Shown in pieces: positions 9,816-29,503 of a stretch of DNA of 64,000 bases. The position numbers and the translations under genes are program-made. Each line of letters starts with the position of its first letter. The first letter of the stretch is position 1. Where the stretch lies: NCBI GenBank assembly GCA_034189385.1, contig JAXHVD010000008.1, positions 32,001-96,000 of the forward strand. The letters run 5' to 3'. Source of the DNA: Thermodesulfobacteriota bacterium. Lineage in GTDB: Bacteria; Desulfobacterota; Desulfobacteria; Desulfobacterales; C00003060. The notes under the pieces were generated by a model, which had not been told where the DNA came from, ran no database searches, and saw only the letters and a list, made by a program, of their open reading frames with translations.

Positions 9816-9832
9816 GGCAATGACTATGCCAA
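9816..9832 (-). promoter_or_regulatory. sigma-54 promoter P1 (porin)
   Basis: TTGGCATAGTCATTGCC. Confidence 0.8.
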
Positions 9833-9925
9833 GTGGAAGGCCCTTTGAAAAAAACATAACCGACTGATAGTTATCGAGAATTGATTCTGAAGATGAGGCA
9901 CTGGCAAGACCTGGGAGGCCACAGC

Positions 9926-9951
9926 TGTCAGCATTTTTTACAGAGTGTAAA
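9926..9951. promoter_or_regulatory. Enhancer-like motif copy 1
   Basis: TGTCAGCATTTTTTACAGAGTGTAAA, 96 bp from the -24 GG of P1. Confidence 0.85.
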
Positions 9952-9966
9952 GGACGCAGGGGATTC

Positions 9967-10896
9967 TCATGGGATGATCCACAGGGCCTGGTCGGTAGTC
10001 TTTTGGACCAACCGCATAGCAATCCGCCCCGTGAAAAAGGCATCCCTTTCGCCGCGTCGGCCTACGACAACGGTGCTGTAGTCTCCGGTTTTGGCTTCTT
10101 CAATAATGGTGGTGGAGATGTCGTAACTCCTGAGTCTGGTCTTTGTCTCTATTTGGTCTTTTTTCAACCCCACGGCCTCGAACCTTTGATAGGCCTTTTC
10201 GTAAAAACGCTCCATCCGCCTCTTGTCCTGGCGTTCAAGGATTTTCTGCAGTGCAGGGTTCTTTTTTTGAAAATCAATGCTATAGTAATGGCTCAGACAA
10301 GGTTGGACGTGAAACAATGTAACCTTCAGGTCTGGATGGGTGCCTACCATGTCGATAAGGTGATCAACATCTCGCAGAGAGTTTTTAGAGCCATCAACGG
10401 CAAGCATGATCTTCATGGAAATGGTTTCTCCAGAGATGACCCACACGGGCGTTCTCAGCGCATGTTCGACTACCTTGGCAGCAGTGGTGCCAATGAAGAA
10501 ATCTCGACTCGGCGTGAGGCCCCTCCGTGCCAAGACAATAGCATCATAGCGCCCTTGTTCAGCCTTTTTGATGATGTCTATAGCCAGCCCGACTTGCATA
10601 GGTCGGGCGATGACTTCGATTCTGTGTTCAGGTATCCCCTCACGCAGCATGATGTCTTTCAGTGCCCCAGCAGTGCACGCCCCGATTTCGGCGTTCTCTT
10701 TCACCATGGCATTGATGTGGGCCTTCATATCAGGCTCTGTCTCTGCCGCGTCAGAAAATATTGCTGGCACTAGTGCCTGCAAATGAAAAAGGGTATAGGT
10801 TGTCTCCTTTTGAGCAGCACAAACCTTGGCAGCGTACCGGACGGCCTGCTTTGAATAGGTGCAGTCCCCCACGGCGACTAGGATCTTTCTCCCCAT
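9967..10896 (-). CDS. Universal stress protein, tandem USP domains
   Basis: KILVAVGD...YDAIVLARRG...GTTAAKVV and IMLAVDGS...VVVGRRG. Confidence 0.9.
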   Translation of the reverse strand: MGRKILVAVGDCTYSKQAVRYAAKVCAAQKETTYTLFHLQALVPAIFSDAAETEPDMKAHINAMVKENAEIGACTAGALKDIMLREGIPEHRIEVIARPMQVGLAIDIIKKAEQGRYDAIVLARRGLTPSRDFFIGTTAAKVVEHALRTPVWVISGETISMKIMLAVDGSKNSLRDVDHLIDMVGTHPDLKVTLFHVQPCLSHYYSIDFQKKNPALQKILERQDKRRMERFYEKAYQRFEAVGLKKDQIETKTRLRSYDISTTIIEEAKTGDYSTVVVGRRGERDAFFTGRIAMRLVQKTTDQALWIIP

Positions 10897-11075
10897 GAAA
10901 CCCCTCCCTTGCTGAAAGCCCATGACCCATTCATTGCCACATCCACCTCTTTACAAGGATACACTGTGCTGCTGTTCCTCGTCTGGATCCCCTGGCCCCC
11001 CGATCAGGGTCCATGGCAGGCGATGGGGGCAATGGGCTTTAGCCTTTTTTTCTTACCACTGCAATAGTCACATGT

Positions 11076-12350
11076 TCAGGCTTTGGTGGCTTCCAAGGCC
11101 TTTGAAATAGAGATGTAAAAGGTTGTCCCTCTTTTCGCGCCCGATTCAAGCCAGACCTTTCCTTTGTGGGCTTCGGCGATTTCCTTGACAATGGCTAACC
11201 CCAGCCCCGAGCCCTCTGTCTGCTCCGATGCCGGGAGTCTTTTAAACATCTTAAAGACAGCCTCCGCATCCTTCTTTTTAATAGCCGCACCGTTGTTGGT
11301 GAGCGAGAATATGTGATAAGACTGGTCTTGGTCATAGCCTATAGTGATCTTGGCAAGCTTGTCTCCAGCATGTTTTAAGGCGTTGTCAATCAGGTTTCTG
11401 AAGACCCGGGTGATGGCCATCTGGTCCGCCATGATCTCCGGAATGGTTTGAGGCTCTGACCACGCGATATTTCGCTCTTTTAAGACAGGTGCCACGTCAC
11501 TTCTGATATGGGCGAGAATCCTTTTGATGTTGGTCCGTCTTATTTCAAAGGGGAACCTGTTAGACCTTATGTATTCATTAATGTCCCTGGTGAATGTCTC
11601 AATCCGTTGGGCCGCCTGCCTGATCTGCTCGCAGTACTTCTTTCCATTTTCATCTAGGCGATCTTCATATTTGTTTGCCAGCAGTCTGGCAAATCCAGAG
11701 ATGCCTACTGCCGGGTTCTTCAAATCGTGGGCAATGGTGTAGGCAAAGAACTCCAGCGCCTCCTTTTTTTCTCGGATCTCTTCTGCCTTCTTCCACAAGT
11801 CGTGGTGCAGCTTGGCCACGTTGGTGGCAATGGCAATCTGGCTTCCTATGGCTACGAGCAAATCGATCTTTCTTTGGTTGAGGGAAACCAGGTGTTTTGC
11901 GGCCAGATTCATCACCCCCACGACCTTGTCTTTTACGATGAGGGGCACGCAGATGATCACCTTAAACCCCTTGCCGGCTAGGAATGCCGACCTCTCCCCG
12001 TTTTCCAGGTCCGACACCTTTTGGGCGACAAAGCTTTTGGTCCTGGCGGCTTTGCCGGAAAACCCTTTGCCTATTGGCATGTGGCGTAGTCCCTCCACCT
12101 GTTTTTTGGAGATTCCTTTATAGGCAACGAGTTCTAAGTTCTCGCCTGTGTCGTCCATGAGGTAGATCCTGACGGCATCTACGTGAAAATGCTCCCGGAC
12201 CTTCATGATGGCCCGGTCCAAGATTTCCGTAAGGCTAAGCGAGCTTGTCAGGTCACTGGCAATGTCGTGGACGACAGCAAGCTCCTTGTGCCTTGCTTTG
12301 AGCTTGCTTTGGCTAAATCGAACGGATATGTATTTCTTGTCAACTAACAT
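11076..12350 (-). CDS. GAF-domain sensor histidine kinase
   Basis: GAF domain; H-box IAHDLKNP; N-box NLIDNALK; GSGLGLAI. Confidence 0.92.
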   Translation of the reverse strand: MLVDKKYISVRFSQSKLKARHKELAVVHDIASDLTSSLSLTEILDRAIMKVREHFHVDAVRIYLMDDTGENLELVAYKGISKKQVEGLRHMPIGKGFSGKAARTKSFVAQKVSDLENGERSAFLAGKGFKVIICVPLIVKDKVVGVMNLAAKHLVSLNQRKIDLLVAIGSQIAIATNVAKLHHDLWKKAEEIREKKEALEFFAYTIAHDLKNPAVGISGFARLLANKYEDRLDENGKKYCEQIRQAAQRIETFTRDINEYIRSNRFPFEIRRTNIKRILAHIRSDVAPVLKERNIAWSEPQTIPEIMADQMAITRVFRNLIDNALKHAGDKLAKITIGYDQDQSYHIFSLTNNGAAIKKKDAEAVFKMFKRLPASEQTEGSGLGLAIVKEIAEAHKGKVWLESGAKRGTTFYISISKALEATKA

Positions 12351-12465
12351 CCTCTTTGTCCCGCAGAAGGCCTATGAAGGATCCCTCTGTTCCACATGAA
12401 GCTCGCGATAAAGCGTTTTGTCACATGTTGGCCAGATATTGAGCGGTTCGGCGAGAAAGGGCCTA

Positions 12466-13164
12466 CTATCTCGGAATCCTGATGCGTCGCCTCTCAACCT
12501 CTTCAAGCAAGTCCCTGACAGTGTATAGGACCACGTACCCCTTTTCCAAGGCTTCTACCAGGGCCTTGGCCTTGTCATCAGCCAAGATCCCGATACGTAT
12601 GTATACGTTTCGGCGACCCTGTTCAGCCAGTTCCCGGGTGGAGAGAATACTATCGATACGCCCACCATAGGAACGGATCAGATTACTGGCCTCCTGGATG
12701 GAGCCTGGGCGGTCTTCCAGGCTCAGGGCAATCTGAATGCCAGCGGTGTAGACGCCCATAATGTTGATCAGCACCTTGAAGATGTCCGTTTGGGTGATGA
12801 TGCCGATGAGGGCGCCTTGATCATTCATGACGGGAAGCGATGAGATTCTATTCTCCAGCATAAGGATGGCAGCGAATTCCACTGTCTCATTGGGCCTGAC
12901 ACAGATCGGGTCCTTGGTCATGATGCTCTTGACGCTCACCGTTGAAATGAGATAGTTGAGTTCATACATATCCAAGGAAGTTGCCTTTGATGGAGAGGCG
13001 TCCCTCAAATCCCTATCAGAGACGATCCCTGCGAGCTTGCCCTTCTTGTTTAAGACGGGCAGCGACCGGATGTTTCTTTCCTTCATGATGATGGAGGCCT
13101 TCATCATGGGGGTATCCTCGTTCACTGTGATGACATCGTTGGTCATCCAGCCTTTGACTAACAT
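12466..13164 (-). CDS. CBS-pair plus ACT domain protein (AcuB-like)
   Basis: MLVKGWMT, GIVSDRDL, SPSKATSLD, GIITQTDIF, ACT motif LEDRPGSI. Confidence 0.88.
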   Translation of the reverse strand: MLVKGWMTNDVITVNEDTPMMKASIIMKERNIRSLPVLNKKGKLAGIVSDRDLRDASPSKATSLDMYELNYLISTVSVKSIMTKDPICVRPNETVEFAAILMLENRISSLPVMNDQGALIGIITQTDIFKVLINIMGVYTAGIQIALSLEDRPGSIQEASNLIRSYGGRIDSILSTRELAEQGRRNVYIRIGILADDKAKALVEALEKGYVVLYTVRDLLEEVERRRIRIPR

Positions 13165-13182
13165 AGAGTCCCCCTTTTTCTT

Positions 13183-13653
13183 TTAGGTGTGGACATACTT
13201 CACCTGGGTCCTAAAGGGATTGACGGTCATTACCGGCACTGAGGCCCTTCTGACGACCAGGTCTGCAACGCTGCCCATCAGTGTCCGTTCCAGGCCCTTC
13301 CTGCCGTGTGTGCCCATGATGATGAGGTCAATATCCTCATCCTGGGCGTATTTCAAAATGTCTTCTCCGGGGTTCCCGATGAGGACCTTGGCCTCGTAAT
13401 CGGAAAAATCGCTCAGTTGTTTCTTGCAAAAAGCCTCCATCTCCTCCTCGGCTCCGCGGGCGATTTCAGCCACCGTATTCATGAGCGTATCCTTTGGAAC
13501 ACTCACTGTGGTGAGATAAGAGATGTCCCGTGCCACGAAGAGCAGATGAAGGCGCGCATTGAATTTCTTGGCCATGTCAAGGGCCTGTGGAAAAACCTTT
13601 TCAGAACACTCTGAAAAGTCTATGGGAAAGAGTATGTTCTTAAATGTCTGCAT
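13183..13653 (-). CDS. Universal stress protein
   Basis: NILFPIDFS; DLIIMGTHGRKGLERTLMGSVA. Confidence 0.92.
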   Translation of the reverse strand: MQTFKNILFPIDFSECSEKVFPQALDMAKKFNARLHLLFVARDISYLTTVSVPKDTLMNTVAEIARGAEEEMEAFCKKQLSDFSDYEAKVLIGNPGEDILKYAQDEDIDLIIMGTHGRKGLERTLMGSVADLVVRRASVPVMTVNPFRTQVKYVHT

Positions 13654-13806
13654 GGCACCCTCCTTTTTTTCTTTTGATTTACTCGTAAACGATCTCGTCA
13701 ATGATATGCTCTTAGCCGGTGCCCCGCCATTTCACCATGACCTCGTCTCCAGAGACAAGATCTGTCAAAGCTGCGGACCATCTGTGCCTACTCTTGGTGC
13801 AAGGGG

Positions 13807-14259
13807 CTATTTCGCACTCCTCGAATGAATGGTCATAACGGGAACACTCGACTTTTTTACGACATTTTCTGCCACACTTCCCATGAGCATGTGCTCCAAT
13901 CCTCTTTTGCCGTGGGTTCCCATAATGACGAGATCAATATCTTCCGATTCAATGGTTTTTAAAATTTCCGTGATCGGATCCCCGGACACCAGTTTTCTTT
14001 CAAGGTCAGAGTACCCCTTCAACTGTTCCTCGCAAATCTTATCCATGGCCTTCTCCGCCGCTTTTAAGGCCTCCCCTTGAAAGGCGTCCATAGAAGTGTG
14101 GGGAATGTAAGCCTTGCCCCATTTTCCTAGATCGTCAACTACATGAAGCAGGTATATTTCACTGTCGTAAGCTTCAGCTACCGAAAGCACATAAGGGGCG
14201 AGCTCTGCTCCACTTTCTGACAAATCGCACGGAAAGAGTATCTTCTTTATTTCTGTCAT
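13807..14259 (-). CDS. Universal stress protein
   Basis: KILFPCDLS; DLVIMGTHGKRGLEHMLMGSVAENVV. Confidence 0.92.
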   Translation of the reverse strand: MTEIKKILFPCDLSESGAELAPYVLSVAEAYDSEIYLLHVVDDLGKWGKAYIPHTSMDAFQGEALKAAEKAMDKICEEQLKGYSDLERKLVSGDPITEILKTIESEDIDLVIMGTHGKRGLEHMLMGSVAENVVKKSSVPVMTIHSRSAK

Positions 14260-14422
14260 TGCATCCACCTCCCGCGTTGCCTGCATGTCGCATCTTCGGC
14301 ATACAGTTTATGATTAAAACCGAGCCCTCGTTGCCTTTGGACTCCATCGCAATAGAGACTGAAACCCTCTTCTTTGACCTCTGCGGCCATGGCCGACCCC
14401 TCTCACCTCCTTCCCACCATAC

Positions 14423-14860
14423 TTATCCCCTGCCAGGGCTCTGTTCCGCCCCCTGTTGTGACGCTGAGGGGCCGGAGGGAGCCCGGCGGGGATACCATTT
14501 CTCTAACACCTCTGCCACCGTCGCCTTGAAGCCTTGAATGTTGTTGCCGCGCTTTTCCCAGAAACAGGCTGCCCTCTGCACTGCCGGGTGCTTCCGCCAC
14601 TCCACATGGAATGTATGGACGATGACTGGAAGAGGCCTATCCCTGGTCTCCAGCTCTTCTAGTATGGTCAGCCCGTTGACATAGGGAAGATCTAGGTCGA
14701 GGATCAGGAGATCTGGAAGATGATCATCGCCGGTCATCTTCATGACCTCTCGGCCGTCCTTTGCCACTTGGACCAGATAACCGGCCAACATCAACTCGCG
14801 GCGAAGAAACTCTCGGACGTGTCGGTTCCGGTCGGCTATTAAGATGCAGAATCGTTTCAT
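14423..14860 (-). CDS. Stand-alone response regulator receiver protein
   Basis: ILIADRN...PDLLILDLDLP...VIVHT; start ATG 14860 lies downstream of promoter P2. Confidence 0.82.
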   Translation of the reverse strand: MKRFCILIADRNRHVREFLRRELMLAGYLVQVAKDGREVMKMTGDDHLPDLLILDLDLPYVNGLTILEELETRDRPLPVIVHTFHVEWRKHPAVQRAACFWEKRGNNIQGFKATVAEVLEKWYPRRAPSGPSASQQGAEQSPGRG

Positions 14861-14895
14861 GGCTGTAAAAGACTCCTCATGTGAGAAGGTACAAA

Positions 14896-14912
14896 AGCAA
14901 CGGCTATGCCAA
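14896..14912 (-). promoter_or_regulatory. sigma-54 promoter P2 (receiver-usp-usp-CBS-HK-usp)
   Basis: TTGGCATAGCCGTTGCT. Confidence 0.85.
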
Positions 14913-15006: not shown

Positions 15007-15032
15007 TGTCAGCATTCTTTACAGAGTGTAAA
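15007..15032. promoter_or_regulatory. Enhancer-like motif copy 2
   Basis: TGTCAGCATTCTTTACAGAGTGTAAA, 97 bp from P2. Confidence 0.85.
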
Positions 15033-15174: not shown

Positions 15175-17886
15175 TCAGGGCGTCTGCTTTTGCCAGCGTA
15201 ACCATTTACACCCCTCGGCCAGGAGAAAGATGGGGAGAGCGACCAAAACAATCAAGCCCCAGTCTCCCCAAGCCAGTGGCACCGTGTGGAGGGCCTTTTG
15301 GAAAAAGGGGACATAGACTGCACATACCTGCAGGCCTATGGTAACGGTCCAGGCGAGCAATACCCAGGGATTGGAGAAAAAGCCGATCACTGAGAGCGGC
15401 ACACGGAGGGCGCGGTAGTTGAATACATTCATCTTCTCCAACACGATGATGCCGGTAAAGGCTGCTGTTTGGGCCAACAGCACCCCGTTTGCCCGGCTGC
15501 AGGCAAGATAATGGTGAAACAACCACAGGGCGGCGCCGCCGATGTATCCGCCCAAGAGCAGTACCATGACGATGCCCCCTCGATCCAGAATCGGTTCTTG
15601 GACTGCCCGCGGTGGGCGCTCCATGATCCCTTTCTCAACACGTTCAAGGCCCAGGGCCACGGCCGTCATGCCGTCGGTGACCAGGTTCATCCACAGAATC
15701 TGCACCGGAAGCAGAATGAGTGGTCCGCCCAAGAGGATGTTGACAAAGATGGCCACCACCTCGCCCATGTTGGACGATAGGAGGTAGCGCACGAATTTCT
15801 GGATGTTGTCGTACTGGCGGCGTCCCTCCTCGACGGCACCGATGATCGAGGCAAAGTTGTCATCCGTAAGGATCATGTCTGATGCCCCTTTGGCCACATC
15901 GGTCCCACGTAGGCCCATGGCGATGCCGATGTCGGCCTTTTTCAGGGCTGGGGCGTCATTGACGCCGTCACCAGTCATGGCCACCACCTGGCCCATTTCC
16001 TTGAGGACACGCACGATGCGCAGTTTGTCCTCTGGCGTCGTGCGTGCAAAGAGCACGGCTTCTTTTAGGAGATGGCGTAGACCGGTGTCGTCCATATGTT
16101 GCAGTTCCCTGCCGCTTATAGCTCTTGTCGCGTGCAGGCCGATGGACCGGGCGATAGACCGGGCCGTGGCCGCGGCGTCGCCCGTAATCATGACAACACT
16201 TATGCCTGCGCTGCGGGCCAGTCGAATGGCCGCGGGGACCTCCACATGGGGCGGGTCGATGATGCCCACAATGCCCAGCAATGTGAGGTCTCGTTCTATG
16301 TGTTCTTCATCCAGGGCAATTCCTTCAGGCAGGCTGCGACGAGCCAGTGCCAGGGTGCGCAAGCCCTGCTCGGCCAGGGCCTCATAGGCGGCTATGGCGG
16401 CCCGTCGGTCCCCATCGGTCATCTCCCGTTCCCCAACCTTTTCAGAAATGCGCGAGCAGCGCTCCAGGATCACCTCTGGAGCGCCCTTGACATGAGCAAT
16501 GAGGGCCTCGGGGAGGTGTTCTATGATTGTCATGCGTTTGCGGCAGGCATTGAAAGAGAATTCGCTCACCGTGTGGGCCCCTTCCTCCGGGTGTAGCAAG
16601 GCCTTATAAGAAGCCACTACCAGGGCTGCCTCCGTTGGCTCACCGATTTCGTGCCAGCCCCCTTCATCCTTGACAATGCGCGCGTGATTGCAACGCAGCC
16701 CTGTTTGGAGCAGCGCCATGAGATCCGGCCTCTGACGACAGTCGATTTTCTGTCCCTTTTCCTCAAAATGGCCTTTTGGGTCGTAGCCGATGCCGTTGAC
16801 TGCCAGCTCTCCAGAGGGAAGCCAGATGCGCGTCACGGTCATCTCGTTTTGGGTCAGGGTGCCGGTCTTGTCCGTACAGATGACCGTAGCCGCCCCCAGC
16901 GTTTCTGCTGCCTGCAGACGCCGCAGTAAGGCACGCCGTCGCACCATGGCTCGCACGCCCAGGGCCAGCGTGATCGTCACCACTGCCGGCAGCCCCTCGG
17001 GCACCACGGCCACAGCCAACGAGACACCGGTCATGAACATTTCCACCAAGGGTTTGCCGAGGAGCCAGCCGCTGACCGCCACCACTACGGAAATGGCGAC
17101 TGAGAATATGCCCAACTGCTTTCCCAGCACAGCGAGCTTGCGTTGCAGGGGGGTGACTTCCCGTCCTACAGTCTGGGTCAACCGCGCAATGCGCCCGAAT
17201 TCAGTGGCCATACCCGTTGCTGTTACCACACCGCGGGCCCGGCCGTTGGTGACCGCCGTGCCCATCCAGACCAGGGACGAGCGCTCGGCAAGGGGAGAGT
17301 CTTTGCTCACTGGATGAACGCCCTTGCTGACCGATTCTGATTCGCCAGTCAGTGACGATTCATCCAGGCTGAGATCGAGGGCTTCGACCAGCCGAAGGTC
17401 GCCAGGAACACGGTCACCGATTTCTAAGACGACGATATCGCCAGGGACCAGTTCTTTGGCATCCACGGTTTGCTCGTGGCCATTACGCACGACCTTGCAG
17501 TGGGGAGACAGCATCCGCTGAAGGGCTTCGATGGCCCGCTCTGCCTTCCATTCCTGGACAAAGCCCAAAACGCCGTTCAGCAACACGATGACCATGATGG
17601 TGACGGCGTCGGCCATCTCGCCTACGGCCACAGAGAGGAGAGCTGCTGCCAGCAGAATAAAGATCAGCACATCCCAGAACTGACGGGCCAATACCGCATG
17701 CCAGGACGCCTTGCCCCTTGTTTCCAGGGTGTTGGGGCCATACTGCTCCAGGCGGTGTGCAGCCTCGTCGGTGCTCAAGCCATGGCGAAAATCGGCATGC
17801 AGCCGGCAGAGGACCGCTTCGGCATCCAGGCTATGCCAGGCTGGCGTCTCGATCTTCTCTGTGGGCGACCCTTCCTGTGTTTTCAC
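15175..17886 (-). CDS. Cation-transporting P-type ATPase (P2A, PacL/CtpF-like)
   Basis: TGES, PEGL, DKTGTLT, KGAPE, GDGVNDAP, QILWMNLVTDG; probable GTG start overlaps the upstream stop (GTGA). Confidence 0.93.
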   Translation of the reverse strand: MKTQEGSPTEKIETPAWHSLDAEAVLCRLHADFRHGLSTDEAAHRLEQYGPNTLETRGKASWHAVLARQFWDVLIFILLAAALLSVAVGEMADAVTIMVIVLLNGVLGFVQEWKAERAIEALQRMLSPHCKVVRNGHEQTVDAKELVPGDIVVLEIGDRVPGDLRLVEALDLSLDESSLTGESESVSKGVHPVSKDSPLAERSSLVWMGTAVTNGRARGVVTATGMATEFGRIARLTQTVGREVTPLQRKLAVLGKQLGIFSVAISVVVAVSGWLLGKPLVEMFMTGVSLAVAVVPEGLPAVVTITLALGVRAMVRRRALLRRLQAAETLGAATVICTDKTGTLTQNEMTVTRIWLPSGELAVNGIGYDPKGHFEEKGQKIDCRQRPDLMALLQTGLRCNHARIVKDEGGWHEIGEPTEAALVVASYKALLHPEEGAHTVSEFSFNACRKRMTIIEHLPEALIAHVKGAPEVILERCSRISEKVGEREMTDGDRRAAIAAYEALAEQGLRTLALARRSLPEGIALDEEHIERDLTLLGIVGIIDPPHVEVPAAIRLARSAGISVVMITGDAAATARSIARSIGLHATRAISGRELQHMDDTGLRHLLKEAVLFARTTPEDKLRIVRVLKEMGQVVAMTGDGVNDAPALKKADIGIAMGLRGTDVAKGASDMILTDDNFASIIGAVEEGRRQYDNIQKFVRYLLSSNMGEVVAIFVNILLGGPLILLPVQILWMNLVTDGMTAVALGLERVEKGIMERPPRAVQEPILDRGGIVMVLLLGGYIGGAALWLFHHYLACSRANGVLLAQTAAFTGIIVLEKMNVFNYRALRVPLSVIGFFSNPWVLLAWTVTIGLQVCAVYVPFFQKALHTVPLAWGDWGLIVLVALPIFLLAEGCKWLRWQKQTP

Positions 17887-18302
17887 GAGGACTCTTCCGA
17901 AAAGTCTAGCGGTACGACCAACACCGGGCAGCACGCCAGTGAAATGACGGTACTGGTGGTACTGCCGACTTGCATACGCTCCACCATCGAGCGCTTTCTT
18001 CGGCCCAAGACAATAGGGTCCACCGGATATTCTTTTACATAGGCGGCAATCGTCTCCTCGGGCAAGCCAGCACGTATTGCTACCGCCTCAACGGCAACCT
18101 GCTCAAGAAAAGCGGTTACCAGCCCCTTTAGGCGGACTCGGGCCTCTTCGATTGCCGACGTGCTTGCCCCTTTTGGGCAAACATGGAGCACATGCACAGC
18201 TTGTTTGTAGCAGGCCGCGCGGACGGCTACATAACGGGCCAGGGCCTCGGAACCTTCGTCAAGGTCCAGGCACAACAGCATGGGTTGTGTTTTAGCTGAC
18301 AT
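17883..18302 (-). CDS. Universal stress protein
   Basis: LLCLDLDEGS; IVLGRR...VGSTTSTVI...CPVLVVP. Confidence 0.85.
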   Translation of the reverse strand: MSAKTQPMLLCLDLDEGSEALARYVAVRAACYKQAVHVLHVCPKGASTSAIEEARVRLKGLVTAFLEQVAVEAVAIRAGLPEETIAAYVKEYPVDPIVLGRRKRSMVERMQVGSTTSTVISLACCPVLVVPLDFSEESS

Positions 18303-20429: not shown

Positions 20430-20455
20430 TGTCAGCATTTTTTACAGGGTGTAAA
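20430..20455. promoter_or_regulatory. Enhancer-like motif copy 3
   Basis: TGTCAGCATTTTTTACAGGGTGTAAA, 98 bp from P3. Confidence 0.85.
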
Positions 20456-20815: not shown

Positions 20816-20967
20816 GACTACCCTCCTGTCTTTGGTTTGATCTACAAGGGGGGCGGCGCCGTCACAGACACTCATCGTGCCTGGCGGGACCTCTACAGGG
20901 AACATGGCCCGTCGCCCTTCGAAAGGCAGCCGGTAGTAAGTTCGGCGCAACGAGTCGGTTCTTCCCG

Positions 20968-21351: not shown

Positions 21352-21488
21352 AAGCCCCTCCCCACAAAAATCGTGATGATTGGTTGGCCTTCGTCTTTCT
21401 GCCGCGATCCGGAAAACAGACCCAATTCCTTCATATTAAAGAATGATAATGGCACAGAGAGTCTTTGCCGGTAGCTGTTCATCTTGAT

Positions 21489-21914
21489 TCAAAGCCCATG
21501 ATCTCCAGCAACACCCTGGACGAACGGCTGCGCCTTTGGCACCATGTTCGAATTTCGCTCAGGTCCCAGGAGATATGCTATCTTCCGCTTCAATTTGCCC
21601 AGAAACATGCTCTTTATCACGTAGCCGTCGGCTTCAGATATCCTCGGGTCCTCTCTGTAGCTGTCATAAGCCGTAAATATGATGACCGGTAGTCCAGGAT
21701 ATTGGTCCTTGATCTCGTGCAAGACGGAAACGCCGTCGTGCCCGTCCAGACAGAAATCCAAAAGGATCAAGTCGGGTGGCCAAAACCTCAAATAACCACG
21801 GACTGACTCCGCATCGTGTGCGGTTTGAACTCTATATCCCTCAGCGATCAGTTCCTCAGAAAGGAATGCTCGAATGCAGGCCTGATCATCCACAATGAGT
21901 ATTCTTGCCATCAT
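21489..21914 (-). CDS. Stand-alone response regulator receiver protein
   Basis: RILIVDD, PDLILLD, PVIIFTAY, YVIKS. Confidence 0.88.
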   Translation of the reverse strand: MMARILIVDDQACIRAFLSEELIAEGYRVQTAHDAESVRGYLRFWPPDLILLDFCLDGHDGVSVLHEIKDQYPGLPVIIFTAYDSYREDPRISEADGYVIKSMFLGKLKRKIAYLLGPERNSNMVPKAQPFVQGVAGDHGL

Positions 21915-22093
21915 GCCCTTCCTATCGTGGTAGTGCGAAACTGTTTGGATGAAGAATGGGACTCGGATTGCTGAAAGGGTTTGTCCTCCTTGCAAACCAT
22001 CTCGATCTGGCATTCAGGAAAGAGCCTCTTGAGCCATCCCCCTAGGGCCTCATTCGGTGTTGCCCCGCTGGTAAGTATCACAGTCCTGTCCAT
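21911..22093 (-). CDS. Small hypothetical protein (60 aa)
   Basis: First ORF after P4; stop overlaps the receiver start (ATGA); LKRLFPECQIEMV. Confidence 0.5.
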   Translation of the reverse strand: MDRTVILTSGATPNEALGGWLKRLFPECQIEMVCKEDKPFQQSESHSSSKQFRTTTIGRA

Positions 22094-22276: not shown

Positions 22277-22293
22277 AGCAAGGACTGTGCCAA
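22277..22293 (-). promoter_or_regulatory. sigma-54 promoter P4
   Basis: TTGGCACAGTCCTTGCT. Confidence 0.85.
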
Positions 22294-22389: not shown

Positions 22390-22415
22390 TGTCAGCATTC
22401 TTTACACATTGTAAA
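22390..22415. promoter_or_regulatory. Enhancer-like motif copy 4
   Basis: TGTCAGCATTCTTTACACATTGTAAA, 99 bp from P4. Confidence 0.85.
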
Positions 22416-22444
22416 GGGTGGTTTTACGGTAACAAGGATGGGGA

Positions 22445-24067
22445 TTACAGGCGATTTTGTCCAACGGCCTGGGCAGTTTGTCTGGGCACCAGAAGATTGT
22501 CCTGGGAGAGTATCTCCTGTAACGCCCCTTCCAAAGACCCTTCCGTATCAATACGGATGTGAACATCATCAGGCACCTCGTCCAAGGGCTCAAAGAGGGC
22601 TTTCATCTTGTCAAAGTGGTGAAGCCGGGCGTCAGATACGGAAGCTGTCTTTTCCCTTTGAATAAGGCGTTCTTTGAGAACGGCTTCCGAAGAGATGCAC
22701 TCTACAAACATCACGTTAGCGTCGGCATCATTTGCCAGCCGAAGCACTTCGCGACGCTGGTGAAGGCTGGCGTATGTTGCATCCAGAATCACAGAGCGAC
22801 CGTTTTCAAGCTCTTCCTGGGCCAGGAGGAGGAGCTTGCCATATGTGAGCGAAGTGGCCTCTTTTGAGTAGAGCCCTGCTTCAAAAGGAAGATCCCTCTG
22901 CTCTTGGGGGTGCAGACCGAAGAGTGCCTTGCGAACCCTATCTGATGAAAAGGCATTGATATCCAGAGACTTGCCCAGGTCTTTGGCAATGGTACTCTTG
23001 CCCGAAGCTGGCATGCCGCAAATGACCCACAGGGTAGGGCGGGTAAACTGGACGGCATATTGATAGGCAAGGTCCGTGTATCGTCTGGTGTCCTTAAGGA
23101 GTCGGCCTCTTTCCTTCTTGGTGATATCCTTTTGCTGGAGGCGGAGACAATTTACCTTTATGCGCACAGAGGCCCTATAGCACTTATAGAAATCAAGGAG
23201 CGCAAACACGTCATGGTCTTGTGTGTCGCTAACGTACGCCTGGAGCAGGTCCTGGGCACTCCGTGGGTGGCCCTCGTAATCCAGGTCCATGGCCAGGAAG
23301 GCCAGGTCGGACGTGATATCTCCGTATCTAAATCGCTCATTGAATTCGATGCAGTCAACGATCTGAATGCCGTCTTCGAAATAGATATGCCCGGATCTCA
23401 AGTCGCCATGGCAATCACGGATCTTTTCCTTTTCCATGCGACGCTCGAAGAGCTCCTTCCGTCTTCTCAAAAAGGATCGCGTGGCAGCGCGCACAATCTG
23501 AAACAGGCGCTCATCTATGATGGTTCCCGAAAACGGTTCCGTTTGTCTGAAGTTTTCTTCGCAATTGGCCCGAACTGTTTTCCATGACCCAAAAGCGGTG
23601 ATGTCGCCCCCAGTGAGGGCTTGATCATAGAACCGGACAAGCGTGCGGGCCAGGGCCCGCAGTTTCCCCTTGTCGATCTTTCCTGCCTCCAACAGACGAA
23701 TCATGGAAGACTCCTGGAGGAGCTGGCGCATCTTCACGCAATACTCCACGGGGCGGCCGGGCCCTGCCATGAAATAGCGTCCGTCTTTTTGGGTGATGGG
23801 AACAACGCCAAGGTATACGTTTTGGGTGAGACGCCGATTGAGTGCCACCTCCTGGTGGCAAAAATATCTCCTCTTTTCGAGCGTGGTGTAGTCCAGAAAT
23901 TCCAGATCAATGGCCTTCTTTATCTTGTAGACAAAAGGCCCTGTCAAAAAGACCTTGGAAATATGCGTGTCACGTTGCTGAAGAAGCGTTACGGGGTGAG
24001 GATAAAAATCAGCCCGTTCCATGGCCTGAAAGATGTCCTTTTGTCTCGCCGTAGCCGCGCTTGTCAT
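22445..24067 (-). CDS. Aminoglycoside-phosphotransferase-like plus AAA_33 P-loop kinase fusion (Rv2004c-like)
   Basis: THISKVFL, YKIKK, RDCHGDL, DCIEFN, DLAFLAMDL; C-terminal GMPASGKST, SDRVRK, ILDAT, SDA. Confidence 0.9.
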   Translation of the reverse strand: MTSAATARQKDIFQAMERADFYPHPVTLLQQRDTHISKVFLTGPFVYKIKKAIDLEFLDYTTLEKRRYFCHQEVALNRRLTQNVYLGVVPITQKDGRYFMAGPGRPVEYCVKMRQLLQESSMIRLLEAGKIDKGKLRALARTLVRFYDQALTGGDITAFGSWKTVRANCEENFRQTEPFSGTIIDERLFQIVRAATRSFLRRRKELFERRMEKEKIRDCHGDLRSGHIYFEDGIQIVDCIEFNERFRYGDITSDLAFLAMDLDYEGHPRSAQDLLQAYVSDTQDHDVFALLDFYKCYRASVRIKVNCLRLQQKDITKKERGRLLKDTRRYTDLAYQYAVQFTRPTLWVICGMPASGKSTIAKDLGKSLDINAFSSDRVRKALFGLHPQEQRDLPFEAGLYSKEATSLTYGKLLLLAQEELENGRSVILDATYASLHQRREVLRLANDADANVMFVECISSEAVLKERLIQREKTASVSDARLHHFDKMKALFEPLDEVPDDVHIRIDTEGSLEGALQEILSQDNLLVPRQTAQAVGQNRL

Positions 24068-24224
24068 CGGTTCTCAGCAAGGACCCTTAAATGGTGTCTC
24101 CTTGTTTCCACGATACCGCCACCGGTTGTTGAGCCCACCCTGCCTCTTTCATCGTCGTAGGCAAGGGTAACAAGACTGACAGGGACGGGGGAAGCATCCC
24201 TGTGGCCATGGCAAGGCGCTTTTC

Positions 24225-24707
24225 CTATCCTGGAAGGGCTGTGATGAGGGTGGGTGTTCTAACCATTTCATAGACTTGCCTCTTGGCGATTTTGTATCTT
24301 TCAAAATAGCGTTGTGCAATGGAAAACATCACATTATATCCTAACCTGGGGTCATTGCGGCAGAGCTCAAACAACGGGACGGACTCTATGGCCATGACCT
24401 CGGAGTTCTCCAAGCACACAGCCGTTATGGGGTACTCTGGCGCCCTTAGCAAGGAGGCGGCTCCAAAAAGCTTGCCAGGATCACATGTCTCATAGGAAAT
24501 ACCTACCACATCTCCTGGACCGATATCTCGCAGGCTCACTAGGCCCTTGCTTACAAAAAAGACGTGAGTGGCCCTGTCGCCCCGATCATATACGTGTGTG
24601 TGCCGTCTATGAACCCTTTTCTCGGCACTTTTTGCCAGTTCTGATAATTGGTTATCTGAGAACGAATCAAACACTTGGCACTCTCTAAGATCGATGCCCT
24701 CTATCAT
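24225..24707 (-). CDS. Cyclic-nucleotide-binding domain protein (no HTH)
   Basis: YDRGDRA, FFVSKGLV, GKLFGAASLL, TAVC. Confidence 0.8.
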   Translation of the reverse strand: MIEGIDLRECQVFDSFSDNQLSELAKSAEKRVHRRHTHVYDRGDRATHVFFVSKGLVSLRDIGPGDVVGISYETCDPGKLFGAASLLRAPEYPITAVCLENSEVMAIESVPLFELCRNDPRLGYNVMFSIAQRYFERYKIAKRQVYEMVRTPTLITALPG

Positions 24708-24904
24708 CCTATTCCTCCCTTCGAACATGACCATTGACCAAACCCTTTCTTACTCGGCTCTGTGAGCTTTTTGATCCGCCAGGGCACGATCCTTCAGCGC
24801 CGCCCGGTGGTCCCGAAAAGCTGACGATAGCCACTCAAAGGGGGTGTCGTGAGGTCTCGGTATCTCATATGCCACTTGTGCCCACATGGGTTACCCCTGC
24901 AAAG

Positions 24905-24921
24905 AGCAATGGGTATGCCAA
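24905..24921 (-). promoter_or_regulatory. sigma-54 promoter P5
   Basis: TTGGCATACCCATTGCT. Confidence 0.85.
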
Positions 24922-25015: not shown

Positions 25016-25041
25016 TGTTTGAATTTTTTACAAATTGTAAA
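25016..25041. promoter_or_regulatory. Enhancer-like motif copy 5
   Basis: TGTTTGAATTTTTTACAAATTGTAAA, 97 bp from P5. Confidence 0.8.
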
Positions 25042-25494: not shown

Positions 25495-25794
25495 GAAAGC
25501 ACCTTCTATGCCGCTTTGGTTTGGAAGGCCCTGATCGGGGCCCTTTGTCCACGAAAAGTTGCTCTGCTGCCCCCGCCAAGTGCCGTGTGACAACCCTCTA
25601 ATCACCTTTAAAAATGGTCAGGCCTTGTTGCTCCCTTAGGTGTTTCTGTTAAAGACAGAACATACACACAGAAGCAAGGTAAGGTCTGGATGCATCGTGT
25701 GTGTTGTATTAGAGCCATTGGTCCTAATCACGGACACGGCAGGGGCAGCAGCATATCGTGTTTTTCTCCCCTTATCATAATACAATCTACAACA

Positions 25795-25811
25795 AGCACA
25801 GAGCATGCCAA
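25795..25811 (-). promoter_or_regulatory. sigma-54 promoter P6
   Basis: TTGGCATGCTCTGTGCT; IHF-like ATAACTCCTTGAAAG lies between it and the motif. Confidence 0.7.
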
Positions 25812-25905: not shown

Positions 25906-25931
25906 TGTCAGGTTTTTTTACAGCCTGTAAA
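25906..25931. promoter_or_regulatory. Enhancer-like motif copy 6 (between divergent sigma-54 promoters)
   Basis: TGTCAGGTTTTTTTACAGCCTGTAAA, 97 bp from P6 and ~110 bp from the + strand promoter. Confidence 0.82.
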
Positions 25932-26038: not shown

Positions 26039-26055
26039 TTGGCACATCTCTTGCG
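26039..26055 (+). promoter_or_regulatory. sigma-54 promoter P6' (cNMP-binding gene)
   Basis: TTGGCACATCTCTTGCG. Confidence 0.8.
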
Positions 26056-26138
26056 GAAAATAATAATATACCATGCTTGTCGCTGCGGAGGCCACAGGCC
26101 AGGACAACAATCGCAGTTCCAATGGAAGGAGAAAGGTT

Positions 26139-26648
26139 ATGGAAATAGCAGAAGTATTAAAAGATGCGAGTCTATTTGCACCTCTATCCAGGGACCAACG
26201 GGACAGGATTGTTGCTCTTGGCAAAATGAAGAACTTCAAGGGATGCGACGTAGTCTTCAAACAAGGACAACCGGCCGATATCTTTTACGTGTTGTTGCAC
26301 GGGTGCCTTCGCCTTACTGTGGAGCACCCGGACGAGCTTGATCTCCTGGCCGAGACCATAGATCACAGGGGCGCCATTTTCGGGATGGCGGCATTGACAA
26401 AGAACGCCAGGTACAACGTGACGGCCACATGCAAAGACAGCGCGGCTGCCTTTGCTGTAGAAGCAAAAGGGCTGAGAGAAATCATAAGACAGGAGCCGAG
26501 TAACGGCCTTGAATCCATGGCTGAGCTGGCTCAGCTTTATTCAAACCGCCTGAACAACGCTCGCGCCACGGTGAACACCATGTGCAGGATCTTCGCGTCA
26601 CAAAGCCATAAGACCGAACTGTCTCACGCTTACTGGGAAGGGGAGTGA
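26139..26648 (+). CDS. Cyclic-nucleotide-binding domain protein (no HTH)
   Basis: VFKQGQPADIFYVLLHG, GAIFGMAAL, YNVTATC. Confidence 0.82.
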   Translation: MEIAEVLKDASLFAPLSRDQRDRIVALGKMKNFKGCDVVFKQGQPADIFYVLLHGCLRLTVEHPDELDLLAETIDHRGAIFGMAALTKNARYNVTATCKDSAAAFAVEAKGLREIIRQEPSNGLESMAELAQLYSNRLNNARATVNTMCRIFASQSHKTELSHAYWEGE

Positions 26649-26713: not shown

Positions 26714-28081
26714 TTACTTGAAGTGGAGACGCTTTTCTTTTTCCATGACGTCAATGATTTCATAGAAAATATTGGGAAATTTTCGAGAAATCCTTTCCCA
26801 AGACACGGTCTGGGGGGTCTCGAAGAGCTCATCGCTGGCCTGGTCCGCTGTCTGCGCCATGGTATGCAACAGACCGGAGGCCAGGTAAGGCTCGAAGGCC
26901 TTATGACTTCCCAGCAACGCGCTGAATCGTTCCACGATCCGATAAGGTGATATGAGAAGATCGCCGGCAGAAAGAATGGCGTTTTTGAAAACCTTCTGAA
27001 CCGTGGCCTCTTCAAGGTTCGTGTCATATTCGAGTCCGGAAAAAGCGGCATTGTCCGCATACATCTTAATCAGGCTGCTGGCTACATTGAGGTACGTTAC
27101 TGTAAGATCTCGGATGAAATGATCGGAGATCTCCAATCCCTCTTCAATAACAAGGGCACTCAACAGGGTGGTGACGATGTCAGTTGCCATCTTGTAGAGG
27201 CCCTTTTTCTTGTCCTCTTCTGACAGCGGTTGGTGCTTGTGATCAAAGGGCCCGCGGGAGATCTCCACTTGGGCAATGTTGGTGGCCTTGCGATAGACCT
27301 CGATGAGTGTGAAGATTTCCACACCCCAGTTCGTGGCGAAGTGCATTCGTTTGAGTAAATTGGCTTGAAAAACGACCTCCCCTGAAAGCTGGTAATGGAA
27401 GTTCAAGAGAAAATCTACCAAGCGTAAGACCTTTTCTTGTTTGGTGTCCGTGAATTTACGTTTCAGGGTGATGAGCAAAGGGTCCAGCAAGAGCCTCTTG
27501 ACGCGTCCATACATCCTGCGTTCCTGAAGGCGGGCGTAAAAGGCTTTGGAAAATTGATAGTTCAGGACCTGAACCGGGTAGAAAAGCCGGTCCAGTTGCT
27601 CCCGTCGGAACGTGCGGATGTCGGCGTCAATAAGGCCCACACTCTCGGCACCTAAGGCCATGGCGATGCCAAAGGAAAGGAACATGTTCCGACCCTTTCC
27701 GGGAACATCAAGGCGAAATCCTGCTTGAGACAGGTTCCTGTAGATCGAAGAGAATCCGGGCCCATCATTGTGCTGGATAAAACAGTTTTTAACACCATAG
27801 TGATCAACGAGTCTCATCAGTTCATAGACATCCTCTTCCTTAGCCTGATCTAGGCCGAGAATGATGCGGGAAAGGTAAGAGGCGGTGCGCAGCTGTTTGA
27901 GCATGTTTTCGAAAGTAGCCCGATTTTCGGGATTCGTGTACTCTGATGCCAAAAGGGGAATGATGAGCACAGCCTTCTTCCACTTGGAATGGTCCCTGAG
28001 TTCTGACTTCAGGTCGGGACGGGATCTGGCCAAGAGGTGGAATGTGGCAATCTGTGTATGCTTTTGAGCAAAATTGGACAC
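26714..28081 (-). CDS. Glucosyl-3-phosphoglycerate synthase-like GT-A glycosyltransferase
   Basis: GKGRNM, IDADIRTF, KAFYAR, YGRVKRL, YQLSGE, NWGVEI, DHKHQPLS; GTG start with AGGAGG. Confidence 0.75.
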   Translation of the reverse strand: MSNFAQKHTQIATFHLLARSRPDLKSELRDHSKWKKAVLIIPLLASEYTNPENRATFENMLKQLRTASYLSRIILGLDQAKEEDVYELMRLVDHYGVKNCFIQHNDGPGFSSIYRNLSQAGFRLDVPGKGRNMFLSFGIAMALGAESVGLIDADIRTFRREQLDRLFYPVQVLNYQFSKAFYARLQERRMYGRVKRLLLDPLLITLKRKFTDTKQEKVLRLVDFLLNFHYQLSGEVVFQANLLKRMHFATNWGVEIFTLIEVYRKATNIAQVEISRGPFDHKHQPLSEEDKKKGLYKMATDIVTTLLSALVIEEGLEISDHFIRDLTVTYLNVASSLIKMYADNAAFSGLEYDTNLEEATVQKVFKNAILSAGDLLISPYRIVERFSALLGSHKAFEPYLASGLLHTMAQTADQASDELFETPQTVSWERISRKFPNIFYEIIDVMEKEKRLHFK

Positions 28082-28246
28082 TTCTATCCCTCCTTTTCAA
28101 TCATGACAGAGCAACAAAGGAAGCGCCTTGACAGGCTCACAAGCAACGAACAAAGGTCTTTTTCGGCAGCACAGTGCAAAAGGGGCCTCTCTTTTGCGTC
28201 GTGGTTTGTCATGAAGCAAAGTGAGGATAAGAAGAGACACTTTTTC

Positions 28247-29176
28247 TCAGGGAACCAACCACGCAGCACTGTCAGAGATCTTGTTGAGAATATGCCTGGA
28301 GACGCTTCCCATGAAAAAGGCATTGCTTGTACCGGTTCTTCCAACGACAATGGTACCGTATTTTCCTTTCTTGGCTTGCGTCACGATGGCCTTGGCCACG
28401 TCCATGGTGGGTTTGGTTACGCTGATTTCGATCTGTGTCTCACTCAGACCAACTTCTTTAAATTTATCCAAGGCTTGGGCATAGAAACGGTCGATGCACC
28501 GTTTCTCGCCTCTTGCCATTACTTCGCCGGCAGCCCCTTCTTTATCGTCAAAATCAATGGCACAGTAGTCCCTGAACTTTGGTTTCACATGAACTAAGGT
28601 GGCCTTTGCTTCTTCGTTCCCCCCTACCATGAAGCAAAGGTGATCCACAGCCCGAAGTGAGGCCTCAGAGCCATCCACGGCGAGCAGAAGCTTCATGGAG
28701 GTCACATCTCCATCTACTATCCATAGGGGAATCACCCGGGAGTGCTCCACTAATTTCGTGGTGATGCTTCCCATTAAAGTCTCCTGTATTCTGGAGAGCC
28801 CTCTTCTGCCTACAACAATGGCATCAAAAAGACCCTTCTGGGCGCCGTCCAGGATGTCTTTACAAATCCCCATTATCTTTATTTGGGTGGAAGTCTCAAT
28901 GCGCTCCTCTTTGATTCCCATTCTGACCATTCTGGCCTTGTGCTTTTCCAGAACTCTTTGGGCAAGTTCAGTGTTCTTCTGGATGATCTTTTTCAGTTCG
29001 GCCCTGGCCTTGAGATCGGTTTCAGCCTCATCCAAGAGATACTGGGACAGGGTGGGTTGTACATGAAAAAGGGTGTACGTCAGATCTGAGACAACGGTTG
29101 CCATTCTGACGGCATATGTCACTGCGTTGGTTGAATGGATGGATCCGTCCACTGCCAGCAAGATTTTCTTGTCCAT
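28247..29176 (-). CDS. Universal stress protein, tandem USP domains
   Basis: KILLAVDGS, VGRRGLS...MGSIT; LLLAVDGS, MGSVSRHI; paralog of 9967-10896. Confidence 0.92.
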   Translation of the reverse strand: MDKKILLAVDGSIHSTNAVTYAVRMATVVSDLTYTLFHVQPTLSQYLLDEAETDLKARAELKKIIQKNTELAQRVLEKHKARMVRMGIKEERIETSTQIKIMGICKDILDGAQKGLFDAIVVGRRGLSRIQETLMGSITTKLVEHSRVIPLWIVDGDVTSMKLLLAVDGSEASLRAVDHLCFMVGGNEEAKATLVHVKPKFRDYCAIDFDDKEGAAGEVMARGEKRCIDRFYAQALDKFKEVGLSETQIEISVTKPTMDVAKAIVTQAKKGKYGTIVVGRTGTSNAFFMGSVSRHILNKISDSAAWLVP

Positions 29177-29361
29177 AGCACACACTCCTTTGCCTTGATG
29201 GCCCCTATGGTGGATGTGACCCTCAGTCAGACCGACCGGCCATACCCTTCCACGTGCGTTGTCACATCCCTGGATAAGCCAAGCCACCAATTCCATGGGG
29301 CTCTTTGGCCCTCTTTTCACTTACCAAATAGCCGCGACAAGATCGGCTGCTACACTCAAAC

Positions 29362-29378
29362 AGCAACGGCTGTGCCAG
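29362..29378 (-). promoter_or_regulatory. sigma-54 promoter P7 (usp-glycosyltransferase)
   Basis: CTGGCACAGCCGTTGCT. Confidence 0.85.
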
Positions 29379-29477
29379 AAGAAGATGGAGGAGCGAAAAA
29401 ACAACTAATAGTCTGAAATGAGGCGCCCTTGACAAGACCGGGGGGAGCCTCTTGATGGAAGAAAAAGCACGGGCCCC

Positions 29478-29503
29478 TGTCTCAAATTTTTACATGCTGT
29501 AAA
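29478..29503. promoter_or_regulatory. Enhancer-like motif copy 7
   Basis: TGTCTCAAATTTTTACATGCTGTAAA, 102 bp from P7. Confidence 0.8.

Follow-up and report, generated by a model that had tools for sequence, protein, structure and literature searches.

Comparison with described systems

In transcription units of the NtrC/glnAp2 type, the activator binds some 100-150 bp upstream of a GG-N10-GC promoter and the DNA between the two is bent. This layout recurs in a stretch of 64,000 nucleotides from a Thermodesulfobacteriota bacterium of the sulfate-reducer type (GenBank assembly GCA_034189385.1, contig JAXHVD010000008.1, positions 32,001 to 96,000 of the forward strand), hereafter called the window. 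Seven copies of a 26-bp element, which we call the enhancer, lie there upstream of sigma-54 promoters of the -24/-12 type, next to the genes of an NtrC-family response regulator and a sensor histidine kinase (Table 1). Neither protein reaches an equivalog cut-off of NCBIfam. The regulator scores below NtrC (472.7 vs 714 bits), AtoC (470.7 vs 558.6) and ZraR (381.8 vs 760), which places it outside these groups, and its predicted targets differ from those of the glnAp2 type.

The nearest counterpart is DVU0110 of Desulfovibrio vulgaris Hildenborough, likewise a two-component regulator of NtrC type with a GAFTGA motif, acting at sigma-54 promoters. Its site, TGTAAAAAAAGCTGACA, is given for four Desulfovibrio genomes upstream of DVU0132-0133, "encoding TSUP family permease" (Kazakov 2015, PMC4641369). 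The motif is shared by DVUA0057, at the DVU0132 site (PMC4641369), and in DNA affinity purification on chips (DAP-chip) both DVU0110 and DVUA0057 bound the DVU0110 site (Rajeev 2011, PMC3333781; PMC4641369). Apart from Kazakov 2015, no literature on DVU0132/DVU0133 was found. The initial annotation of the window, made from the sequence alone, had not recognised the motif as that of a named regulator. Its TGT-N11-ACA half, however, with the consensus TGTAAAAAATGCTGACA here, agrees with the published DVU0110 site at 16 of 17 bases, a likeness of site and target rather than of aligned proteins; the core of the enhancer site was already published, so the motif cannot count as new. Both systems have an operon of a TSUP (TauE/SafE) permease as a core target (on contig C34 of this genome, with eight further units in relatives), and homologs of the regulator with 58-59% identity lie next to an exact 17-mer in one genome (G260) and about 1.9 kb from it in another (G245).

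The two systems differ in extent and architecture. In the parts of the published account drawn on here, the DVU0110 regulon lists two target operons, against 11 enhancers and 12 promoters in the present genome, and the island of universal stress protein (Usp), HSP20, ATPase and porin genes, the sulfate adenylyltransferase gene (sat) and the 6S-like RNA found here are not among the targets listed. Unlike the DVU0110 site as described there, the element also has an extra distal half-site, which makes it a 26-bp tripartite element, a strict spacing of 114-120 bp and a fixed core resembling a binding site of integration host factor (IHF). New for the DVU0110-type family are how large the regulon of this genus is and what it contains, with about 12 promoters, sat and a dormancy-like Usp/HSP20 island, and, as predicted from sequence, a shared divergent enhancer, rigid phasing and a sigma-54-driven 6S-like RNA.

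The TGT-N11-ACA box is shared with the DVUA0057/PrsR type of PEP-CTERM-box regulators (TIGR02915) as far as these are described in the same sources. The other sites of DVUA0057 itself, of the type TGTCGG-N5-nTTACA, are unlike those found here. With 425.6 bits against a TIGR02915 cut-off of 502.6, and a match confined to residues 4-383, the regulator falls outside PrsR; the kinase, at 97.1 bits against 300, is not PrsK. Unlike the regulon described for PrsR, the one studied here includes no PEP-CTERM targets.

Two further systems resemble the present one in their genes. In the available account, NmpR (NmpRSTU) of Myxococcus xanthus is NtrC-like and acts at sigma-54 promoters of genes for Usp, CBS-domain proteins and a P-type ATPase; it acts when the electron acceptor oxygen runs low, through a phosphorelay from a haem kinase, and its targets include a cbb3 oxidase (PMC11841059). 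Its site, GCGCA-N5-TGCGC, differs from the motif found here and puts the two in separate site families, so that NmpR is, by analogy, a functional analogue and not a member of the same family. In Desulfobacteraceae, clusters of DASS transporters, Cache kinases and receiver and CBS proteins have been described and control by Cache kinases and a WalR-type regulator proposed; the parts of that account drawn on here mention no sigma-54 activator or enhancer (Sci Adv 2025, PMC11887813). DASS-cluster operons nevertheless sit behind the present enhancer in relatives (loci L009, L091, L115, L124 and L125), whereas the island of the window has no DASS gene.

The gene content also recalls the DosR regulon of Mycobacterium tuberculosis, which comprises many Usp, an HSP20-type chaperone, a CBS protein, a cation P-type ATPase and GAF kinases. 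DosR is a NarL-type regulator dependent on sigma-70, and the organism is unrelated; the similarity of the gene sets is an analogy only. No literature on a regulon of universal stress proteins under a sigma-54 enhancer-binding protein was found.

Enhancers, promoters and their geometry

When the window was searched for TTTACA-N3-TGTAAA with up to one mismatch allowed, seven matches were obtained, all of them exact (starts at 9937, 15018, 20441, 22401, 25027, 25917 and 29489). Shuffled sequences gave an expectation of 0.04 palindromes, and none of 100 shuffles reached seven. In minus-strand orientation, the seven copies share the longer form TTTACA-N3-TGTAAA[AG]AAT.C.GACA. Every enhancer pairs with a minus-strand promoter TGGCA[CT]-N5-[TG]TGC, the T of TGG falling at 9831, 14911, 20333, 22292, 24920, 25810 and 29377. 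The initial annotation had reported seven 26-bp motif starts between 9926 and 29478, at 96, 97, 98, 99, 97, 97 and 102 bp from the GG; the starts correspond to the seven exact palindromes and the distances were reproduced from the promoter coordinates. The window contains 12 matches to the pattern TGGCAY-N5-KTGC where 0.78 are expected, and eight of the 12 are enhancer-linked. The eighth is a plus-strand promoter served by enhancer 6, and the seven enhancers thus feed eight promoters, with the palindrome centre 114-120 bp from TGG.

IHF sites follow the consensus WATCAA-N4-TTR, which was used as the search pattern for the spacer. All eight enhancer-linked promoters have a core of this kind, with 0-3 mismatches, whose start lies 38-41 bp upstream of the T of TGG. 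AT-rich IHF-like sequence, noted at first for several promoters, is therefore present at every one of them in a fixed position, and the arrangement of enhancer, IHF-like core and sigma-54 promoter that had been put forward is indeed present in the sequence. The genome encodes rpoN (PF04552 at G000:C21:25524-26000, 207.9 bits).

The same geometry was observed in other genomes. In 51 fetched loci, a weight matrix of the element matched 60 times at 20 bits or more, and a TGGC-N8-TGC promoter accompanied 56 of these matches. A set of 62 non-redundant sites, including 10 from this genome, gave an offset from matrix start to TGG of 120-128 bp with a mode of 124 (124 bp at 26 sites, 123 at 12, 122 at nine, 125 at five, other values at 10). 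Only three blocks are conserved across these 62 sites, namely the enhancer, a block aA...t...t.tTTtCA.....tT and the promoter, while the rest of the spacer is not. Two outliers have offsets of 114 (L133, genome G204, site 887, minus strand) and 103 (L131, genome G245, site 6216, plus strand). They lie about 10 and 21 bp closer to the promoter, roughly one and two helical turns, which argues for strict phasing on one face of the helix.

The initial annotation had taken the locus for a complete regulon. This did not hold: in the assembly (4.13 Mb, 64 contigs, 90% complete), contigs C1, C3, C34 and C43 bear another four pairs of enhancer and promoter, and the divergent promoter has to be added inside the window, which brings the genome to 11 enhancers and 12 promoters. 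Genome-wide, the palindrome occurs in 10 exact and seven one-mismatch copies; a promoter at the fixed offset accompanies nine of the former and two of the latter. With the weight matrix, the 11 sites score at least 34.7 bits and the next best in 4.13 Mb scores 15.1 bits, a separation that is in part circular, since these 11 sites also served to build the matrix. An independent control is given by the exact composite of palindrome and promoter described below, whose reversed form had no match in any genome searched.

Sigma-54-like promoter matches are also found in the window away from any enhancer, at 12728-12742 (minus strand, inside the CBS gene), 1676-1690 (plus) and 45515-45529 (plus). The genome-wide sets of 15 HU/IHF-family matches and 31 sigma-54 activator domains are both unusually rich.

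The adjacent regulator and kinase as candidate activator

From these data and the comparisons below, the seven 26-bp elements are likely to be upstream activator sites, to which the adjacent NtrC-family response regulator would bind after phosphorylation by its kinase. The regulator carries the sigma-54 activation domain (PF00158, 4.6e-71) with EKGAFTGA and an HTH_8 domain (8.7e-12), and it is the sole protein with a DNA-binding domain in the island of 8-32.5 kb. Its orthologs (at least 61% identity, paralogs reaching at most 48%) were found in 18 of 40 relatives. In a search over genome contigs, six close relatives with 64-73% identity were present among the 80 loci kept, the rest being at paralog level (at most 52%). 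Common to the orthologs, and distinct from the paralogs of this genome, are the DNA-binding domain GNRS.AAKLLG[IL]SRPTL.SK..KY and a tail E[TA]SV.

Ortholog and element occur together. An exact composite was defined as the palindrome, 98-118 bp and TGGY-N8-TGC, with the reversed pattern as control. It was found in 21 of 41 genomes, including 16 of the 18 ortholog holders, and the control in none of the 41. In an even draw of 400 other genomes of the phylum, with this genome counted, 46 genomes from 31 of 255 genera contained the composite, and the control was absent from all 401. By a cross-tabulation made by hand for the 400-genome sample, the composite is present in 40 of 67 ortholog holders and in 6 of 333 other genomes.

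Furthermore, the place of one enhancer relative to the regulator gene is conserved. As at enhancer 7 of the window and in G006, G018 and G012, an enhancer starts about 10-200 bp past the regulator stop codon in at least 14 sampled genomes from six other families (G436, G412, G090, G204, G407, G333, G122, G353, G084, G431, G210, G401, G029 and G405). A kinase of 487-542 residues is encoded directly upstream of the regulator at seven of eight distant orthologous loci (33 of 43 open reading frames given to Pfam). Co-occurrence, together with an adjacency conserved across many families, leaves the adjacent regulator and kinase, as first suggested, the best candidates, and the predicted role of the regulator as activator is well supported by comparative genomics.

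Genome G001, with nine sites and no ortholog, was considered as a counter-example and rejected. This genome is scaffolded across runs of 100 N, and a C-terminal fragment of the regulator (47 residues, 77% identical) begins at such a gap and is followed by an enhancer.

Several observations weigh against this assignment or reduce its force. The cross-tabulations overstate the association because related genomes are not independent. The exact composite is missing from 27 of the 67 ortholog holders, which may result from the strictness of a pattern that demands a perfect palindrome, and among the relatives G026 and G030 have the ortholog and no exact composite. Conversely, six genomes of 62-93% completeness contain the composite with no ortholog detected, and G007, G019 and G032 have one site each and no ortholog. 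In this genome, the operon of kinase and regulator lacks its own enhancer, and the third half-site of the 26-bp motif is absent on the plus-strand side of enhancer 6. No protein reached an IHF equivalog cut-off genome-wide, the best of the 15 HU/IHF-family matches (himA model) scoring 89 bits against 120. Among the sequencing runs listed as containing the locus, six were of DNA and none of RNA. Finally, contig C43, which bears one of the 11 enhancers, may be a paralogous copy or a co-binned contig of a related population; from the P-type ATPase end through the enhancer to the GAF kinase it repeats the gene order of the window at 84-90% DNA identity.

Genes behind the enhancers

It had been inferred that essentially every unit from 8 to 29.5 kb is controlled by one activator. 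Each unit between 7966 and 29377 does lie behind a promoter of this type, and the adjacent regulator is the best candidate for the activator, but the units are not all protein-coding. The predicted target set in the window amounts to about 25 genes, including eight Usp domains (Table 1). Several units recur behind the enhancer in relatives: units orthologous to that of the porin in G006 and G018, the order receiver-Usp-Usp-CBS in G006, G001, G003 and on contig C43, a unit of exchanger and ATPase in G006, and a cNMP-binding gene in G006, G003 and G018.

The unit behind the promoter at 25810 is a 6S-like RNA and no protein gene. Rfam RF00013 matches there over the full model (1-187) and, at 53.6 bits, exceeds its gathering score of 46.4; of the open reading frames called across this stretch, 25636-25899 and perhaps also 25201-25605 are unlikely to be genuine. 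A search with RF00013 over 41 relatives placed the canonical 6S RNA of the genome at C8:98918-99102 (97.4 bits). Weak second copies were examined in six genomes. The enhancer and sigma-54 promoter precede three of the six (this genome, G011 and G003) and are absent in G016, G008 and G009. By title and abstract, no sigma-54-dependent 6S RNA was present among the literature matches listed, which is weak evidence. Were the 6S-like RNA driven by sigma-54, it would tie an enhancer-binding protein to the competition of sigma factors in an unusual way.

The porin leader (9412-9816, minus strand) and the sat leader (G000 C1, about 150750-151170, minus strand) measure about 400 nt from promoter to start codon, and comparable leaders of 270-530 nt are found in relatives. 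The porin leader has no Rfam match at gathering scores.

Table 1. Coordinates of the predicted enhancers, promoters, genes and related features (positions refer to the window unless a contig is named)
Feature	Position	Strand	Remarks
Enhancer (upstream activator site) 1, 26 bp	9926..9951	-	46.4 bits; minus-strand TTTACA-N3-TGTAAAAAATGCTGACA
Enhancer 2	15007..15032	-	palindrome and promoter pairing; 47.1 bits
Enhancer 3	20430..20455	-	palindrome and promoter pairing; 41.5 bits
Enhancer 4	22390..22415	-	palindrome and promoter pairing; 45.5 bits
Enhancer 5	25016..25041	-	palindrome and promoter pairing; 39.1 bits
Enhancer 6	25906..25931	-	palindrome centre 25924; two divergent promoters served
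Enhancer 7	29478..29503	-	34.7 bits; starts 40 bp past regulator gene stop
Sigma-54 -24/-12 promoter 1, TGGCATAGTCATTGC	9817..9831	-	leader of about 400 nt, then porin gene
IHF-like core 1	9857..9869	-	1 mismatch to WATCAA-N4-TTR
Sigma-54 promoter 2, TGGCATAGCCGTTGC	14897..14911	-	IHF-like core 14938-14950
Sigma-54 promoter 3, TGGCACGCCCCTTGC	20319..20333	-	IHF-like core 20360-20372, 3 mismatches
Sigma-54 promoter 4, TGGCACAGTCCTTGC	22278..22292	-	IHF-like core 22320-22332
Sigma-54 promoter 5, TGGCATACCCATTGC	24906..24920	-	IHF-like core 24947-24959
Sigma-54 promoter 6, TGGCATGCTCTGTGC	25796..25810	-	115 bp from palindrome centre; IHF-like core 25837-25849
Divergent sigma-54 promoter, TGGCACATCTCTTGC	26040..26054	+	117 bp from enhancer 6 palindrome centre
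Perfect IHF-like core, TATCAAACAATTA	26000-26012		between enhancer 6 centre and plus-strand promoter
Sigma-54 promoter 7, TGGCACAGCCGTTGC	29363..29377	-	IHF-like core 29406-29418
NtrC-family response regulator	29543..30976	-	receiver Asp52, AAA+ with GESGTGKE and GAFTGA, HTH_8; predicted activator
Sensor histidine kinase	30981..32474	-	periplasmic 4HB_MCP/CHASE3-like module, HisKA, HATPase_c; predicted cognate kinase
Outer-membrane porin, Porin_O_P family (anion-selective type)	7966..9411	-	2.5e-33
Six-gene operon	9967..14862	-	single-domain receiver, Usp, Usp, CBS pair, GAF histidine kinase, tandem Usp
Four-gene unit	15175..20252	-	HSP20, Na+/H+ exchanger, Usp, type-II (Ca/cation) P-type ATPase
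Three-gene unit	20507..22013	-	single-domain receiver and two proteins without family match
Two-gene unit	22445..24734	-	cNMP-binding-domain protein and APH-like/AAA_33 kinase-fold protein
Second, divergent 6S-like RNA	25566..25748	-	48 nt downstream of promoter 25796-25810
cNMP-binding-domain gene	26073..26648	+	likely start ATG 26140, after GGAGAAAGG; behind divergent promoter 26040-26054
Two-gene unit	26714..29320	-	tandem Usp and glycosyltransferase; the latter weakly like glucosyl-3-phosphoglycerate synthase (GpgS), NF040724 208 bits vs cut-off 700
Sulfate adenylyltransferase (sat)	contig C1		behind enhancer/promoter and leader of about 430 nt
TauE/SafE (TSUP) permease, then 228-aa protein, unknown protein, PpnN-like gene	contig C34		behind enhancer
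DeoC-family aldolase, Mrp/NUBPL ATPase, desulfoferrodoxin, radical-SAM protein operon	other contig		behind enhancer
Receiver-Usp-Usp-CBS-GAF-kinase operon, second copy	6-kb contig C43 (L086, 1-6096)		behind enhancer

Proposed mechanism, signal and rival explanations

In the mechanism that we propose, the kinase would phosphorylate the regulator, which would then bind the enhancers. Each enhancer would be a tripartite site of three half-sites, TTTACA / TGTAAA / TGACA, forming a 15-bp palindrome and an overlapping TGT-N11-ACA box whose centres are one helical turn apart. The regulator would oligomerise on this site, an IHF/HU-type protein would bend the spacer, and ATP hydrolysis would open the sigma-54 closed complex. 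Switched on in this way in the window would be the Usp, HSP20, CBS, cNMP-binding and receiver proteins, the GAF kinase, the cation P-type ATPase, the Na+/H+ exchanger, the anion porin, the glycosyltransferase and the 6S-like RNA; elsewhere in the genome, sat, the TSUP permease operon and the aldolase/desulfoferrodoxin operon would follow.

As to the signal, 64 enhancer-driven units outside this genome were surveyed, their open reading frames being called by a rough script and 115 of 155, besides the 33 of 43 mentioned above, given to Pfam. Usp was present in 13 units, CBS in nine, TauE/TSUP in eight, DASS (Na_sulph_symp) in six, often with Cache kinases and receivers, sat and cNMP-binding domains in three each, and Porin_O_P and PBP_like_2 in two each. 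Single cases comprised DsrE, a DsrC-like protein with an FNT channel, acetyl-CoA synthetase, an acyl-CoA synthetase-GNAT protein and a PpsA-like protein. In the phylum sample, dsrA is encoded in 61 of the 67 ortholog holders and in 143 of the 333 other genomes. Because TSUP, DASS, sat, anion porins and Usp/CBS recur as targets in relatives, our tentative guess is that the signal may be a shortage of sulfate, which is the electron acceptor, or of energy.

A possible, though doubtful, alternative keeps the same mechanism and takes ionic, osmotic or envelope stress, or general starvation, as the signal. The Na+/H+ exchanger, the cation ATPase and the GpgS-like enzyme, a glycosyltransferase of the compatible-solute type, fit ionic or osmotic stress equally well, which counts against sulfate or energy limitation; HSP20 and the porin are also among the targets in the window, the periplasmic 4HB/CHASE3-like sensor of the kinase has no known ligand, and the regulon of this genome includes no DASS transporter. 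On the other hand, the targets that recur across genera are related to sulfur oxyanions (the TSUP, DASS, sat and PBP_like_2 units, 8, 6, 3 and 2 of the 64, and the single units with DsrE, the DsrC-like protein and the FNT channel), this genome likewise has sat and TSUP among its targets, and dsrA is enriched among the holders of the regulator.

High-affinity sulfate uptake in sulfate reducers is described as regulated, and the available part of that account names no regulator (PMC5840216). In its fullest form, the sulfate-limitation reading would make the kinase-regulator pair a master switch in sulfate-reducing Desulfobacterota, a proposal that we regard as rather unlikely to hold in its entirety. 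Acting through one enhancer and sigma-54, the pair would increase the uptake of sulfate by way of TSUP, DASS and the anion porin, and its activation by way of sat. A dormancy-like programme of Usp, HSP20 and ion pumps would be set off as well in this genus, and in this lineage the pair would produce a second 6S-like RNA by which sigma-70 transcription is damped and sigma-54 favoured. The loci compared here, from many families, have one conserved enhancer with sigma-54 in front of sat, of transporters of the TSUP and DASS types, of anion porins and of a large Usp/HSP20 island. The predictions are specific, namely the 26-bp site, the positions of the start sites and the two-gene sensor system, and are testable in cultivable relatives.

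It is improbable that the enhancers, though real, are bound by another sigma-54 activator of the genome instead of the adjacent regulator. Candidates exist, with 31 Sigma54_activat matches in the genome, a PAS-type activator in the window (2876-4267) and a PAS activator within an enhancer-driven unit of G018, and the six genomes with a composite and no detected ortholog would also be accounted for. Against this speak the co-occurrence of 40 in 67 versus 6 in 333 and the adjacency of regulator stop and enhancer, which is kept in many families.

We attach similarly little weight to an element shared by two proteins, with the regulator at the TGT-N11-ACA box and a second factor, repressor or co-activator, at the overlapping palindrome. 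Such a division would suit the published DVU0110 sites, which in the parts of the sources drawn on are 17-mers lacking the extra half-site, the site of the distant homolog in G260, an exact 17-mer with no upstream TTTACA, and the divergent plus-strand promoter, which uses the palindrome without a third half-site. Yet no second DNA-binding protein co-occurs in the island, the half-sites are alike (TGTAAA / TGTAAA / TGTCAG), as one protein would give, and palindrome and box are conserved jointly in nearly all 60 sites. We give a negligible likelihood to the view that the repeats have no regulatory role and belong to a dispersed element such as a repetitive extragenic palindrome (REP) or a miniature inverted-repeat transposable element (MITE): short, palindromic and intergenic as they are, they form three conserved blocks at fixed positions with unconserved DNA between, occupy orthologous positions upstream of orthologous genes across families and always point toward a gene.

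Other features

On contig C6 (5077-5150), two palindromes TTTACA-N3-TGTAA[AG] lie 30 bp apart, with a further TTTTACA about 30 bp on; no sigma-54 promoter stands at the spacing seen elsewhere, and the half-site may have a different use here.

The PAS-domain sigma-54 activator of the window (plus strand) was rejected as a binder of the enhancers: it adjoins a sigma-54 promoter of its own (2640-2654, minus strand) and a Nitro_FeMo-Co gene (2000-2401, minus strand), and no enhancer copy is present there. The activator is divergent from this promoter and forms with it a separate module, which resembles the OrpR/orp layout of D. vulgaris. A further Nitro_FeMo-Co gene is found at 5499-6008.

Just upstream of the kinase gene, EutB and EutC domains, the large and small subunits of ethanolamine ammonia-lyase, are fused in one open reading frame of 773 residues (32621-34942, minus strand).

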